Below the pieces are notes generated by a model. That model was given only the letters and a program-made list of their open reading frames with translations, did no database searches and had not been told where the DNA came from. A stretch of 64,000 bases of DNA from Octopus vulgaris. Lineage: Eukaryota. Of this stretch, positions 2,076 to 55,023 are shown piece by piece. A program made the position numbers and the translations under genes. The stretch covers positions 83,080,001-83,144,000 of the forward strand of contig OX597822.1 of assembly GCA_951406725.2 (NCBI GenBank), given 5' to 3'. The stretch's first letter is position 1. Every line of letters starts with the position of its first letter.

Positions 2076-3460
2076 ACTACACATTCCCGTATCTTCAAGA
2101 TCAATATGATCGATGTCATTCAGAAGATTCTGCCATGTGATTCTATGCCTTAACGACGTTTCTTGTCTTATGGCTAAATTTATTTTTCATGGTATAATTC
2201 TTAGTATTCTTGGGAAGGTACGTTACTGGCAAAATCGTTAGAATACCAACCAAATATGACAGTGTTATGACCTTCGGAAAAGTTTTCAACGTCCCATAAT
2301 AGTATTTCACAATTTCCAGATTTCATCTTTTTAATTTTCATTTTAACAGTATGGTCTTCATGTTGTTGCTGTTGGCTTTCCGTCGAAGGTCGGTCACGAT
2401 CGAGCTTACATGTGATCAATGGCTGTGAATATCTCATCTTTTCAGCCTTAGTTAATCTTAACTATATTATCTAATATATATTTTAAAGGAATACGGTAGA
2501 GTGTAATTTGATAGCAATTCGGCAGCTGTTTCTTACAGGTCAAGTAATAGTGTGGATATTCTTAGATCCTTCTGTATTCATCATTAAATACCACATGGTA
2601 TTCGGTAAAATGTTTGTACTCGGTACGGGTGGATCTTCAGCTAACAAGAAAGCCTTCATGCAATAGCTCGACTTGCTAGAAAAATCGCATCGAAAACTTT
2701 CTTCAAATCTTAACATTCTAATGCGGATTACACTTTAAATAATATCGCCCAGGTCGCACTGGATGGCCATGCTTGGAATTTCTTTGATCATATACTTGAT
2801 TAAACCAGGTTTTCTTGGAGGCTAAACAACAACAACATACAGTGACAGATTCCTTTCTTGTTCTTTAAACTGGTTCAAAATAACTAAAATGACAGTTTGA
2901 ATAGCAACAGGCGGAAAAATCAATACTTACAACCATCGGAATTGCTTTCTTCTTATGTACAGTCAATAATAAATCACAGCCAATTTTAATTAAGAGTTTC
3001 AATACTTAAATAAGTGTATTGCATTCCAAAAGATTATCTGATTAACGACTCACTTTTGAAACAGCATATTACATTTATGGAAACTTTGCTATTTCCAAAT
3101 AATTAAAATAATGGATGCGATATATATTCTAATGGTTCATTGAATATTTTGAGCGTTCTGTAACAAAGAGGTTTCTTTTATTCTATCATTCACTCAAAGA
3201 GAAACATCCCCCTCCAGACGATTTTCTACTAGTCAATCTTCTTTCAGCCATACTTTACATCTTTTAGTTATTGGCTCGTGGTCATACTGGGGTATCGCAT
3301 TGAAGGGTTTTACTCAAATAAATCTTTCCAGGTACATATATTAAATGGTTTATTGATCTTATTTGCTAACCTGCTGATGTAACGAAGGAATAAACAACCC
3401 CGTACTGATTGTCTAGCGGTAGTGGTGGATAAACAAACACACACACACATACTTGTGCAC

Positions 3461-3643
3461 ACATATTTTTAATAACATCTTTACTCAGCTCCACATGGTT
3501 TAAAGTTTCGTGTGTGTGTACGACGCAGCAGTCTCATCAGATATCAGAAGACTCTTCTCATATCTGATGAGATTGATGTGTCCTACGCACCTATGAACCT
3601 TGAAGTCATACGACGCTGAGTAAAACTATTATTAAAAATATGT
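3461..3643. repeat. Old fold-back element (~88-bp arms) with decayed hammerhead motifs in both arms
   Basis: ACATATTTTTAATAA..TTACTCAGC..TCTCATCAGATAT is the reverse complement of ATATCTGATGAGA..GCTGAGTAAA..TTATTAAAAATATGT. Right arm reads TAT-CTGATGA...GAACC-TTGAA-GTC-ATA. Confidence 0.6.
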
Positions 3644-3817
3644 AATTCTTACCAAATATTTTGGGTGACACTTTCTTTCGTTTGTCCACTCACTCGTACA
3701 CACACACACACACACACAAGCGCACGCTTCAGCATACACACACACAAACCACGCCACCTCAAACACAAACCACACCACACAACACACACACACCACACTA
3801 CACACATACACCACACA

Positions 3818-24343: not shown

Positions 24344-25249
24344 TTACATAGAGAGTATTTTGCGTAGGATATGAGCAGTTCCCATGAGCACTATCTTTTG
24401 AACTTCTGCCATTTTTGGGTTTCCTGGTATCTGAGTTAGGTAGCTATCAGCCCCTTTTGCTATCATTCCCAGGGCACCTATGACAACAGGTATTGTTTTA
24501 GTCTTCAGCTTCCACATTTTGCTGATTTCTATTTCAAGATCTTTATATTTGCTCAGTTTTTGGTAGGTCTTGACAGATACGTTTATATCGATTGGGACAG
24601 TCATATCAATGAGGAGGCATGTTCTTTGTTTGAAGTTTTTCAATATGATGTCTGGCCTATTTGCATCTATCTTCCTGTCAGTTTGAATGGTGAAGTTCCA
24701 GAGGAGTGAGATGTGGTCATTTTCAAGCACTGGGGGTGGTTTGTGTTCCCACCAGTTTTTTACATGGGGCAAATCCAGGTTTTTACAGATTACCCAGTGA
24801 ATATATTGTGCAGCTCTATCGTGCCTGTTGAGATACTCTGTAGGCGCTAGAAGACTGCACTTGGAGACCACATGGTCAATGGTTTCATTTTGTTGCTTGC
24901 ATACACGACACGTTGGACTGCTTCTGATCTTTAATATGTTGGCCTGGTAGTTTCTTGTTGGTAGGCATTGATCTTGAGCTGCTATGATAAACCCCTCTGT
25001 TTCAGATTTTAAGCCAGAGGCCATTAGCCATTGATGGGTCAGGGCTTTGTCGATATCTGCATTATTCGCTCTCTTTGGGTATTTGCCATAGAGAGGTTTT
25101 TCTTGCCATTTATTATTCAGAATATCTAAGGCCGCAGTTTTGGCACGGGTTTTCATGCGCCTAGCTTTTTCTGTGCTTGTTTCTTGTATATCTATCTCTA
25201 ATTCCGAAATTGGTTGTATTCGGAATTCACTTAGATATTCCTTTGCCTG
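24344..25249 (-). CDS. Dong/R4-clade non-LTR retrotransposon, CCHC knuckle plus restriction-like endonuclease (5'-truncated)
   Basis: CRVC..ETIDHVVSKC, RHD, RPDII..LIDMTVP, KLSKY and IPVVIGALG. The 3' UTR runs to ~24110, and both ends lie in (TAA)n. Confidence 0.9.
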   Translation of the reverse strand, partial: QAKEYLSEFRIQPISELEIDIQETSTEKARRMKTRAKTAALDILNNKWQEKPLYGKYPKRANNADIDKALTHQWLMASGLKSETEGFIIAAQDQCLPTRNYQANILKIRSSPTCRVCKQQNETIDHVVSKCSLLAPTEYLNRHDRAAQYIHWVICKNLDLPHVKNWWEHKPPPVLENDHISLLWNFTIQTDRKIDANRPDIILKNFKQRTCLLIDMTVPIDINVSVKTYQKLSKYKDLEIEISKMWKLKTKTIPVVIGALGMIAKGADSYLTQIPGNPKMAEVQKIVLMGTAHILRKILSM

Positions 25250-25305
<56 letters not shown>

Positions 25306-25515
25306 AATTATTATTATTATTATTATTACTTTTTTTTTTCTTCTTTCAAATTTTCTTCCATTTCTTGCCGAGTGTCTTCCCGACTCCTAGGGCAAAGAAA
25401 CTCATAGTGTATATTGGTAGGCCATTAAACCAAACTCAGTAGTTCGTTCATTTTTATTTTTTATTTTTTTTTTATTTTTTAAAGTTAAATTAAAATACAT
25501 GAGCAGCAACAGTTC

Positions 25516-27516
25516 TCACATCGACAATGCTCTTCTCAATACGTGTGATGTACCAGTTAAGACAATCTTTTGCACTTCTTGCAGGGATGGTAAGCCAGGG
25601 ATCATTCTCATATAATTTTCGGTTCCCTTCTTGATCATTCCTAGTGCTCCTACGATCACTGGTATTGTAACCGCCTTGAGATGCCACATTTTCTCAATTT
25701 CAATGAGTAGGTCTTTATATTTTCTGAGCTTGTCAAACTCTTTCGCTGAGATATTATGATCACAGGGGATGCTCATGTCGATCAATAAGCAAACTTTATT
25801 GTTTTGGTCTTTCACAACAATATCTGGTTTATTGGCCTTGATGGTTCGGTCTGTATGTACTGGAAAGTCCCACAGAATGGTTACATTTTCTCCTTCAGTT
25901 ACAGCCTCAGGGTGGTGATTATACCACTTGTCGGCAGTTTTGATATTGTAATGCCGACTTATTAGCCAGTGGAGATATTGGCCAACTCTGTCATGTCTTA
26001 ATTTATACTCCACTGGTGCTAAGACTTTACATCCAGAGATTAGGTGGTCCACTGTTTCAATCATGTCGTTGCAGAATCGGCATTTTGGGTCTGCTCCATT
26101 TTTCATCACATTGGCCTGGTAGTTCCGGGTTGATAGGCTTTGGTCTTGAGCAGCCAGGATGAAACCTTCGCTCTCTGCTTTTAGCCCTGAGCTCCGCAGC
26201 CACTGATGGGTTTGCTTCTGGTTAACATCAGCTTGTTTGCTGCGGGTCACATATTTGCCGTGCAGAGGTTTCTCCTCCCACCTATCAGCCAATTGCTCGT
26301 GCGCTTTTTTCATTGCCATCATTTTCACCTTCTTTGCAACAATAGTTGCCGTACTTCCCTCGGGTTGTTCAGTTTGGGTATCCTGCACGAGATCAATAGC
26401 AAATTTTTTGCTTTCATTGATGATAGAATGAAGTTTCTTTCGTCTCTCGTGATTTTCCACGAGCTTTAGCATCCAGTCATTCGATATTTCGAGATATTTG
26501 GCCAGTCCAATTGTGGTTGTTTTGTAAGCTAGTTCAAATTGGATCAGGCCTCGACCTCCTTGGGCTCTGGGAAGGTAAATGCGATCTATGTCTGCCTTTG
26601 GGTGGTGCATCCTATTACAACTCAGCAGCTTGCGTATTTTTCTATCTATATTCTTTACTTCACTCATATTCCAGTTCAACACATTGTAGCTATAAGTAAC
26701 AACTGGAACTGCTAGGGAATTTATAGCTAACACCTTGTTACGTGCATTTAGTTCAGATTTCAGGACTGCACGAACTCTCCTATAACATTCCTTCGTGATT
26801 TTCTCTTTCATGCTTGCATGCTGAATACCAGAGCCTTCATTTATCCCTAAATATTTGTATGTTTGTTCTTGCTCAAGCTCTCTTATGACTGTGTCAACAT
26901 CTAACACGACTGAATTTGTGGTATTCACTTTCCCTTTCTGGAAAGTGGCCTTGGCACACTTCTCAAGTCCAAACTCCATCCCGATGTCATCGCTGAATGC
27001 TTTCACGGTGCGCAATAGGCCTTCAAGTTCATTATTGTCTTTACCATAAAGTTTTAAGTCATCCATATAAAATAGATGGCTTATTTTTTTATTGGCAATT
27101 TTATACCCATACCCTGTTCTGTTTAATTCACTTGTAAGGGGTATTAGGGCTATGCAGAATATTAAAGGTGAAAGTGAGTCACCTTGAAAAATTCCACAGT
27201 TGATGTTTATATTTTCTGAGGCAAGTACTCCATTAGAGTGGTATAATTGGAGATTCGTATTCCACAACGACATATTGTGCTTCAGGAAGTTTGAAATCAC
27301 AGGGGAAATTTTGAAGATGTCCAGCGATCTCAAGATCCATGGATGCGGTATACTGTCGAAGGCCTTTTTATAGTCAATCCATGCGGTGCTGAGATTTCTG
27401 CGCTTGTTGTGACAGTTCTCAAGGATCATACGATTGATTAGCAGTTGATCTTTGCATCCGTAAGAGCCTCGGCGGCACCCTTTTTGTTCAATGGGGAAAA
27501 TATCGTTCTTCTCCAT
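25516..27516 (-). CDS. Dong/R4-clade retrotransposon reverse transcriptase plus REL endonuclease (5'-truncated)
   Basis: IDYKKAFDS, GIFQGDSLSP, YMDD, YLG, CRFC..HLISGC, RHD and KPDIV..LIDMS. Upstream coding (KSPGKD..NFW, 27520-27775) is broken by a deletion. The element spans ~25345-27775 between (TAA)n tracts. Confidence 0.93.
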   Translation of the reverse strand: MEKNDIFPIEQKGCRRGSYGCKDQLLINRMILENCHNKRRNLSTAWIDYKKAFDSIPHPWILRSLDIFKISPVISNFLKHNMSLWNTNLQLYHSNGVLASENININCGIFQGDSLSPLIFCIALIPLTSELNRTGYGYKIANKKISHLFYMDDLKLYGKDNNELEGLLRTVKAFSDDIGMEFGLEKCAKATFQKGKVNTTNSVVLDVDTVIRELEQEQTYKYLGINEGSGIQHASMKEKITKECYRRVRAVLKSELNARNKVLAINSLAVPVVTYSYNVLNWNMSEVKNIDRKIRKLLSCNRMHHPKADIDRIYLPRAQGGRGLIQFELAYKTTTIGLAKYLEISNDWMLKLVENHERRKKLHSIINESKKFAIDLVQDTQTEQPEGSTATIVAKKVKMMAMKKAHEQLADRWEEKPLHGKYVTRSKQADVNQKQTHQWLRSSGLKAESEGFILAAQDQSLSTRNYQANVMKNGADPKCRFCNDMIETVDHLISGCKVLAPVEYKLRHDRVGQYLHWLISRHYNIKTADKWYNHHPEAVTEGENVTILWDFPVHTDRTIKANKPDIVVKDQNNKVCLLIDMSIPCDHNISAKEFDKLRKYKDLLIEIEKMWHLKAVTIPVIVGALGMIKKGTENYMRMIPGLPSLQEVQKIVLTGTSHVLRRALSM

Positions 27517-27774
27517 GAATGCATGTTTTCTCCGCCAGGATAGATGTTAGGATTTTATACGTGGTGGATAGTTTTTTGGAAGGTTGGTTTCATTATTCTT
27601 TGGGAGTAGGTAAGTAATGCCACTTGCTAACCATTCAGGTGTTTTCTTTGGGTCTCTCATAATTCCATTGAGCAGCTGAACTAGCTTACCGTGTGCGCAC
27701 GGGAGCGATGCGAGCCAGAAATTCGGCACCCTATCTTTACCGGGGATTTCCAATTATGGGCCTTCGTGAGTGCC

Positions 27775-53438: not shown

Positions 53439-53904
53439 TATACATACATACATACATACGTACATACATACATACATACATACATACATACATACATACA
53501 TACATACATACATACATACGTACATGGGGGAGAATTCACCAAAAAGCAAAAGATGAAGACAGGTGGTGTAGATAACAAACAGGTGTATTAGTATAACGCT
53601 CGGGAAGTGAAAAAGTCTTTAACGTTTCGAGCCTACGCTCTTCCGCTGAAAGGAACACAGAAAGAAAGAAGGAGAAAAAATAAAGAATGTGTAGTGGTTA
53701 GCTATCTACATACATACAGTTTAAAATTTCAAAGTGAACTAAATTTTTCATATCCCACCAAACAGATAACAACACCATACGTGGGTGATGACATTCTTTT
53801 GCCTGGGGTGCCGGTATTTCTCCTTTCACTACCCACTGTCTTCGGCGCTTGACATTTTTATAGAGAACCCATCTCTCGTCACCTGTCGCTATCCGAAAAA
53901 AAAA

Positions 53905-54232
53905 AGTCGGATGTAGAGGGTTTGTAGGACACAGCGTGAGACGACTGTTGTTATCGTTAGGCCTAACTCATCGTAAAGTCAATACCACCATGACTGATAT
54001 CCAATCTACAGTGGAGAAGGCTAGCCACTGGATTTGGTTAAAAAGAGACGATGAGCGATGGCTAGAAGTATATTGAGTTCATCATAACCAGCTGATCTAG
54101 CAAGCGGGGCCTCATATCAGTGAGGGGGCCGGTGCGCATTGATGCCGTCGAGAGGTAGGCCCCGAAACGGCGCGCATTCTCTCCTGATGACCCCATACAC
54201 TTGCTAGCTTCCGATATACGGAGCTTTTAACT
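53905..54232 (+). mobile_element. Hero-clade REL retrotransposon 3' end
   Basis: VGCRGFVGHSVRRLLLSLGL..VEKASHWIWLKRDDERW matches the Hero C-terminal pattern (EVGCRGF..AS.W.W.KR), followed by a structured GC-rich 3' UTR. Confidence 0.7.
54097..54207 (+). ncRNA. Candidate rearranged (non-circularly permuted) hammerhead ribozyme
   Basis: Strand order is TGCC-GTC-GAGAG (54143-54154), GGCCCC-GAAAC-GGC (54158-54171), CTCTC-CTGATGA-CCCC (54179-54194). Stems I and III pair correctly, and the whole is closed by CTAGCAAG/CTTGCTAG. Confidence 0.65.
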
Positions 54233-55023
54233 GGTAGCACTTGCATGTGCAAGTTGTTTGCAAGATATATATATACCTTACAGCAAAGAAGAATACACTT
54301 TCACCCTCGGCGCGCGATTAGACTCGGATAGTTTGTGAGGAACCCACTTACCCAATTTGCTGACTTTTCCGATGGCACGCAGACAAGCATATACGCAAAT
54401 GGAAACTGAAACACATAACCATATATACACACACAATTTACTTCACACAAGGACACATATGGAGACACGTATCCACACATATAGAGATGCACCTCCCTGC
54501 ATACAAACACGGTACATAGTTGCAAAACACACACACATGCTCAGACATGCAGACACAAGGAGACAGAGGTGCATACATATACAAACACGCACACACATAC
54601 ATAAAAATACACAAACACGGACATGAAAGCATATGGATATGCAAAATACATACATACAGATGCATACGCATACATACATATGCATACACACTCACATATA
54701 TACATACACACATGTATACATACATGCATACACACTTACATACATGCATGCATAGGCACACATGCACACACACTGACTACGCACATGCGCACAAACAAAC
54801 AAAAAGGAATGCTGTGTAAATAACGGACAGTCAAGACTATTGCAAAGGTTGCAAGACGCAACAAAAATTTTAGGAAAATAAAAATAAGAAATAAGTGGAA
54901 ATTTTACCGGTGAGTGTGTTAAATTATAAGGCACAAAAAGAAAATGGCTTTCTCTAGACACAACAGAATATGCTTCAACACACGAACTCACATAAAGAAT
55001 ATTGCAAACCAAATACAAAAACG

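Follow-up and report, generated by a model that had tools for sequence, protein, structure and literature searches.

Copies of a HERO-like retrotransposon in the genome of Octopus vulgaris carry in their 3' UTR a pseudoknotted hammerhead whose strands follow one another in an order that belongs to none of types I-III, and whose stem II is completed by an upstream strand instead of being entered directly from the CUGAnGA strand. The motif is real and deeply conserved, and it is likely to be active. This rewired hammerhead is tied to an unusual replication pattern; the structure of the motif and the arrangement of genomic copies are observed, and cleavage, ligation and an internal start of reverse transcription would each have a part in the cycle proposed from them.

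The motif was found in the window, the stretch of 64,000 nucleotides of O. vulgaris DNA that was analysed, in a copy that is 99.7% identical to positions 3374-3738 of the unit of a full copy in locus L031 (Table 1). The full copy contains a single 1,175-codon ORF with a Pfam match to RVT_1 and, in order, an N-terminal C2H2 zinc finger, RT, CCHC knuckle, RHN and PD-(D/E)xK endonuclease, the domain motifs lying at positions 100, 615, 954, 979 and 1063; the portion of this ORF retained in the window matches protein P0002 at 65% (tblastn). The family shows the hallmark of RLE non-LTR elements, a fixed 3' end with variable 5' truncation among copies. The element is called HERO-like from its C-terminal motifs, and its anatomy agrees with this label; protein homologues were found in fish and lancelet, none of which bears the HERO name, and the RT tree was built without named HERO reference families. 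The family is young and present in high copy in this genome (2.8 Gb), which yielded 2,582 first-look candidates, 40 scored copies that were all 99-100% identical, and 868 and 1,469 occurrences of two 16-mers taken from the motif. The copies are scattered over many contigs, matching the largely non-specific or microsatellite-biased insertion described for the HERO clade in the accessible text of PMC4640811. Searches of viral contigs with the element protein gave no relative, and those of phage DNA no match; three matches in prokaryote genome records (L112, L113 and L114) are eukaryote-type retrotransposon DNA and probably represent eukaryotic contamination of prokaryote assemblies.

Several features of the family and its surroundings were noted along the way. 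The L031 reading frame is open from 4605, its first Met being codon 61, and the head of the unit (L031:4605-4720) contains four to five imperfect GGAAAGAC-type repeats with a spacing of ~20 nt; such repeats also precede the ORFs of the distant relatives L052, L057, L065, L072 and L098 and are possibly promoter, translation or protein-binding sites. In the same genome, L124, L125, L129, L136, L137 and L144 are derivatives of ~1.0-1.45 kb with an internal deletion, in which 680-850 nt from the start of the unit and 340-620 nt from its end are retained; most of them have a tail-head junction, and they are likely to be non-autonomous, retrozyme-like offspring. Another RLE non-LTR retrotransposon, split by microsatellite sequence and with 20-30% protein identity to the HERO-like family, occupies window positions 24347-27546 on the minus strand; the HERO-like tandem pair of L031 was inserted within a copy of this type and is hence flanked by it.

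Table 1. Coordinates of the HERO-like copy and of the hammerhead motif in the window
Feature	Position	Strand	Remarks
5'-truncated HERO-like RLE non-LTR retrotransposon copy	53904..54267	+	last ~365 nt of the 3,738-nt unit
C-terminal end of the 1,175-codon ORF (endonuclease domain end) and stop codon	53904..54076	+	ORF of L031
Helix IIa, 5' strand	54097..54109	+	54097-54104/54200-54207 (8-bp) and 54106-54109/54191-54194 (GGGG/CCCC)
Inserted hairpin H	54110..54124	+	54111-54115/54120-54124; C54110 unpaired in the 5-G copy
IIb 5' strand, true stem II	54125..54130	+	GGGGCC pairs with GGCCCC 54158-54163
P4 5' strand	54131..54136	+	pairs with 54173-54178
Block S: stem III 5' strand, GUC, stem I 3' strand	54143..54155	+	predicted cut C54149/G54150
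Block G: IIb 3' strand, GAAA (G12-A15.1), stem III 3' strand	54158..54172	+	
P4 3' strand, stem I 5' strand, CUGAUGA (C3-A9), IIa 3' strand	54173..54207	+	
Post-ribozyme tail	54209..54267	+	hairpins 54209-54223 and 54240-54253; fixed 3' end GCAAGAY
Predicted 3' cleavage product, 118 nt	54150..54267	+	stand-alone genomic insertions elsewhere

The hammerhead core of the window copy is complete, with C3-U4-G5-A6-N7-G8-A9 supplied by CUGAUGA at 54184-54190, G12-A13-A14-A15.1 by GAAA at 54164-54167 and the cleavage triplet GUC at 54147-54149. Stem III pairs 54143-54148 with 54167-54172, and stem I pairs 54150-54154 with 54179-54183. From 5' to 3' the strands run IIa 5', H, IIb 5', P4 5', III 5', the UH cut and the first stem I strand; after a short linker there follow IIb 3', GAAA, III 3', P4 3', the second stem I strand, CUGAnGA and IIa 3'. 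The blocks thus appear in the order S-G-C, which matches none of the circular orders CGS, GSC and SCG of types I-III. The initial annotation had recognised this order, and every strand and coordinate that it quoted was found in place; two corrections apply, in that it counted G54125 twice, in the hairpin and in GGGGCC, and missed a sixth helix, P4. The window copy has five G residues at the junction, with a 1-nt junction defect and only 4 bp in proximal IIa, and a six-G form closes the junction perfectly; among loci fetched from the same genome, which were not deduplicated, 28 have the five-G and 21 the six-G form. Beyond the fold lies the tail, likely the protein-binding and RT start region. 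Directly after IIa, a TCCRG...YGGAG hairpin occurs in the window (54209-54223) and in L033-L035, L037, L039 and L040, and other relatives have a GCAGT...ACTGTA hairpin after the ribozyme; either hairpin is a candidate protein-recognition element near the RT start.

Relatives were gathered by the C-terminus of the protein alone, the motif playing no part in the selection. The set comprised 79 metagenome loci (taken from the 80 best among 330 confirmed, at 34-56% identity) and three others, or 83 loci with the octopus copy included; nine with <200 nt downstream were set aside, three of which nevertheless carry the motif, leaving 74 informative loci. GAAAY followed by CUGAnGA was present within 520 nt after the ORF in 58/74 loci, as against 0/74 on the reverse strand and 1/64 in the coding region, and within 900 nt in 60/74, as against 3/74 on the reverse strand. 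With one farther copy, 1.65 kb downstream of the ORF in L084, and six core variants read by eye, the total reaches 67 of the 74. The variants are U3.G8 (L036, L038), U3-A8 (L059, L072), G12A (L110) and a degenerate copy (L107). U3-A8 in the close relatives L059 and L072 probably reflects one event, and the replacement of C3-G8 by U3-A8 is a known active core swap, according to the part of PMC3088659 at hand. Five of the seven loci that do not show the motif end 308-1,067 nt past the ORF; in L074 and L076 the motif is deleted and a tail-head junction is present all the same. A motif-less clade was considered and rejected, the motif lying farther downstream in L053, L056 and L084 and being degenerate in L107. 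In the clade of L053, L056 and L084 the 3' UTRs are long, at 0.6-1.7 kb, and here too the motif lies close to their end. The fish models P0079, P0083, P0085, P0087, P0093, P0119 and P0120 have C-terminal tails of the ...GRPGEGV type, which appear to read into the ribozyme region as far as the cleavage triplet; the ORF may overlap the ribozyme fold in some fish families.

Pairing was examined in 41 loci under 80% identity to one another (mean identity 52%). When each strand was paired with its own and with foreign partners, the z-scores were 18.4 for IIa, 12.5 for IIb, 15.0 for III and 15.6 for I, compared with 1.5 for direct pairing of stem II. Direct stem II pairing was rejected on this score, and the position directly 3' of A9 gives C.C or U.C in 29/41 loci; position 10.1 does not follow A9 at once, as it would in a three-way junction. 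The upstream bridging strand proposed in the initial annotation is supported. That strand provides a G opposite C11.1, forming G10.1-C11.1 in 37 of the 41 non-redundant loci, and IIb is therefore the true stem II; in the window the G10.1 equivalent is G54125, opposite C54163. Two helices, IIa and H, are inserted between A9 and G10.1 and joined by linkers of zero length. In a stacked four-way junction, the tandem G-A pairs of the core would lie on IIb, and IIa on H, so that the standard catalytic core would stay intact even with A9 and G10.1 unlinked. U16.1 closes stem III in 41/41 loci, and N17, whose identity the motif parser left free, is C in 15, U in 15, A in 11 and G in none.

Six helices are conserved and, in these alignments, covary across divergent HERO-like elements. 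When 24 of these loci, from one clade and with ends set by our own parse, were aligned with MAFFT, 88% of the cells were paired, compared with 37-43% in a slid control, and double changes were seen in 34/38 pairs over the six helices (counts of sequences, not of independent events). Stems I and III are both present with covariation. P4 was found by best-match search in 41/41 loci, at 4-11 bp, and has double changes in 6/7 pairs, and RNAalifold, unaided, recovered IIa, H and IIb with zero-length linkers. These results support what the initial annotation had proposed, namely that the 3' UTR of an RLE retrotransposon holds a hammerhead that is pseudoknotted and not circularly permuted.

A chance arrangement of short motifs within one repeat is scarcely credible, even though two results might seem to suit it. 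The MFE fold of 54078-54240 is unremarkable (z -0.99), which is expected because the RNA is doubly pseudoknotted, and Rfam has no counterpart of the motif: searches with E up to 10 gave no match, nor did ten relatives at the gathering threshold, and scans around the motif returned microsatellite-driven miRNA matches alone and no ribozyme family. A C-before-G spacing is present in 2/74 loci. A core-only descriptor gave four matches in each shuffle set (60 shuffles of the window and 20,000 of the element). The full-fold descriptor matched once in the window, on the plus strand only, with no match in the 60 window shuffles and 0/20,000 in those of the 364-nt element, and the chance explanation is refuted by conservation and covariation across the 41 divergent loci.

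Self-cleavage is predicted, and likely, after C54149. The fold had been suggested to define the 3' end of the element; copies end instead at a fixed point ~118 nt downstream of this site, and it is with a hotspot of 5' junctions that the predicted cut coincides. Nine copies, from a search that selected for them, start exactly at G54150 and run to the normal 3' end. Three overlapping searches with equal ascertainment placed 6/12, 9/19 and 8/14 junctions exactly at the cut. In their union, over the nine positions from offset -3 to +5, 16 of 30 junctions fell there (p ~2e-8 against a uniform distribution), which likely makes the peak a fossil record of cleavage in vivo at the predicted site; a control region ~250 nt upstream had three junctions and no peak. 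The distinct genomic copies beginning at G54150 number 17 in all. Three of the counted junctions, L244 (the same as L151, at offset 0), L166 and L248, join upstream parts of the element and not host DNA, as would be expected if RT jumps from the cut end to elsewhere on the template. C54149 lies in a CpG and 15/17 flanks at the peak end in T; a few of the peak junctions may be deaminated junctions at -1/-2, and three undeaminated ones were seen in all. In a single case, the foreign contig L052 starts 1 nt past its own predicted cut and continues into tail, head and ORF. An apparent 5' hotspot at the start point of the window copy (unit 3373) was not borne out on re-examination.

These junctions bear on whether the fold might be a catalytically dead derivative of a hammerhead that serves as a protein-binding or RT-positioning signal, with the peak reflecting an RT stall. 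In favour of such a fold, the 3' UTR folds of R2 bind the element protein (PMC6765202, in the portion consulted), the copies end 118 nt past the site, and stem II has no covalent link to A9, a link assumed necessary in the part of Eckert 2023 (PMC10085705) that was accessible. There is in addition a second, broader cluster at +21 to +26 (54171-54176, in the P4 and III strands), with 8/10 junctions counted from 30 of 37 matches fetched, which is possibly an RT stall on the folded core and indicates that RNA structure, too, can stop RT. At the cut itself a folding stall is not favoured: the peak is confined to a single nucleotide, at the scissile bond, a position that ranks 12th-14th of 17 in the folding-stall model. 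From the fold of the template still to be copied, stalls are expected at +1 to +3 and +13 to +16 but none at 0. All letters of the catalytic core, the exclusion of G at N17 (0/41) and the U3-A8 swap have moreover been kept. We regard a dead fold as improbable, and the ribozyme as very probably active.

The 5' ends of longer copies point to an unusual template. Among the top 30 head-matching copies (40 scored, 74 candidates), 25 extend upstream into the tail of another copy, one of them with just 5 nt of tail and two looking like duplicates, and the other five start 37-61 nt inside the unit. The continuity of tail and head in 25/30 copies means that the element has no fixed 5' end and that its template was circular or multimeric. 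Of the 25, 18 cross the cut site intact and none stops there; a complete upstream ribozyme is restored in 16. The same arrangement is seen in relatives, 13/43 foreign loci running from the tail into the N-terminus and six long foreign contigs repeating the 3' sequence ahead of the ORF. Self-insertion beside an older copy was rejected as the source of the tandems; the junction always leads from the tail to unit position 1, and the upstream copy is the truncated one. The 3' flanks of 70 non-tandem copies agree with the head sequence ATCTA in 69, 62, 39, 48 and 41 cases at the successive positions, the first two being the A and T of an AT at the 3' junction; this is consistent with pairing of the primer with RNA extending beyond the junction, or with a plain preference of the nuclease.

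A template of long linear read-through RNA would account for the tail-head junctions equally well, and we consider it a possible though clearly less likely setting for an active ribozyme. Cleavage would then free the element RNA from host transcripts, strip downstream poly(A) or limit the activity of the element, and full copies would be made from uncut or still-paired molecules alone. Consistent with this, ~98% of copies cross the cut site unbroken (by estimate, ~14/868 stop there), a proportion that also fits slow or mostly uncut RNA, and the starts of the partial copies upstream are scattered at will, reaching to -1,380 at least. Direct evidence for a circle is confined to a contig of 1,283 nt from run X1, a run of uncertain type presumed to be RNA, that closes on itself across tail and head; its unit is ~1.25 kb with an internal deletion, and it can derive from a tandem array. 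Penelope-like elements, too, occur in tandem and partial-tandem repeats with an internal RT start (PMC11167929, accessible text). A linear template nevertheless needs long master arrays in every lineage, where only pairs were found among the top matches, and it leaves unexplained why a topology that clamps both cut ends has been kept across proteins just 34-56% alike.

We somewhat favour, for these reasons, a cycle in which the hammerhead cuts head-to-tail transcripts into RNAs of unit length, which then circularise for RT, and give the same modest preference to a role in a circle or nicked circle more generally. Read-through of a partial-tandem copy would yield RNA with two ribozymes, and cleavage by both would release a molecule composed of tail, 5' UTR, ORF and 3' UTR up to the GUC. 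Its two cut ends would re-form the fold (~25 bp in four helices) and would either be joined, by the ribozyme itself or by a ligase of the host, or stay together as a nicked circle; the exchange of product strands held by ~25 bp may be slow, and circle closure in retrozymes seems to be the work of a protein ligase rather than of the ribozyme (PMC7229834, as far as the text was available). The element protein would nick AT(CTA) target DNA, with copying started inside the RNA at the tail-head junction. An RT that rounded past one unit would rebuild a partial tandem, and on templates that were still cut it would run off at the cut and give the 118-nt inserts. That HERO-like elements as a whole are autonomous LINE-type elements replicating by way of hammerhead-made circular RNA of a seventh topology, with an internal RT start, has in our estimate about an even chance.

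If the seventh-topology reading is true, block C is split by a four-way junction inserted after A9 and ahead of G10.1, contrary to the stated assumption that CUGAnGA cannot be parted from stem II; going by the literature searched, animal-type genomes would here have their first hammerhead that is not circularly permuted. A whole retrotransposon clade would gain a 3' UTR ribozyme that the Rfam models have missed, one whose predicted cut is already recorded in the genome as a one-nucleotide junction peak. If the circular reading is true, each long insertion rebuilds a master with two ribozymes, and the element can do without a fixed 5' end of its own. Copying of an R2-like element from a circular or multimeric template, with RT starting internally, would be convergent with Penelope elements and retrozymes. 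Because it clamps both cut ends, the fold may also be of use in the production of circular RNA.

A hammerhead variant whose stem II is formed over a long range and which has an additional hairpin, the RAGATH-1-hammerhead, was reportedly described by Weinberg et al. in 2015. RAGATH-1-hammerheads are known from bacteria or metagenomes. The Rfam model for this variant, RF03152, has 77 positions; the present motif may overlap with it in architecture, and the Rfam searches described above returned no match between them. The portion available of a 2026 paper mentions hammerheads with extra helices, citing Weinberg 2015. The accessible parts of PMC6155905, PMC11702757, PMC7650587, PMC13580325, PMC5737381 and PMC11014351 contain no description of the motif, and the openly accessible literature that was searched held no report of a hammerhead in a HERO 3' UTR.

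The closest known relatives in architecture are the type-SGC hammerheads, HRIMA-1 and its variants, described by Eckert 2023 (PMC10085705, the source in part for what follows). These share with the present motif the block order S-G-C, two core pseudoknots, all core nucleotides, a short linker that leads from stem I into stem II, and an additional helix by which the distal sides of these two stems are joined; P4 is by analogy likely the counterpart of this type-SGC stem I-II interaction helix. Type SGC keeps block C whole, whereas here A9 leads into IIa and the G10.1 strand lies upstream behind H; Eckert 2023 assumed an insertion of ≤1-2 nt at most between CUGAnGA and stem II. The initial annotation had taken non-circular hammerheads to be known already from eukaryotic repeats; as far as that text extends, such hammerheads occur in metatranscriptomes and metagenomes, SGC itself in metatranscriptomes and not in eukaryote genomes, and the genomes of known organisms provide just one bacterial GCS candidate. 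The motif would work like a type-SGC hammerhead yet is a member of neither SGC nor types I-III.

Among ribozyme-bearing mobile elements, Penelope-like elements resemble the HERO-like family in having partial-tandem copies, a hammerhead in the terminal region and AT-rich targets, and an RT start inside the RNA, which is proposed here, was shown for Penelope-like PAc (PMC11167929 and PMC6765202, both in part). They differ in their GIY-YIG endonuclease and in their small type I hammerheads that work as dimers, in contrast to the PD-(D/E)xK endonuclease and the monomer-competent pseudoknotted fold of the present family. In retrozymes, tandem repeats are cut by hammerheads and the unit RNAs circularise, the same pattern as proposed here (PMC7229834, in part). 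Retrozymes are non-coding, 170-400 nt in length and of type I or III in the passages available from PMC7229834 and bioRxiv 10.64898/2026.07.22.740005, whereas the octopus element is autonomous and 3.7 kb long, with deleted derivatives of 1.0-1.45 kb besides. In R2, likewise an RLE element, and in L1Tc, a self-cleaving RNA frees the non-LTR element from a longer transcript; according to the accessible part of PMC6765202 those ribozymes are of the HDV class and cut at the 5' end of the element, whereas that of the HERO-like family is of the hammerhead class, with its predicted cut in the 3' UTR, 118 nt before the end that is copied.
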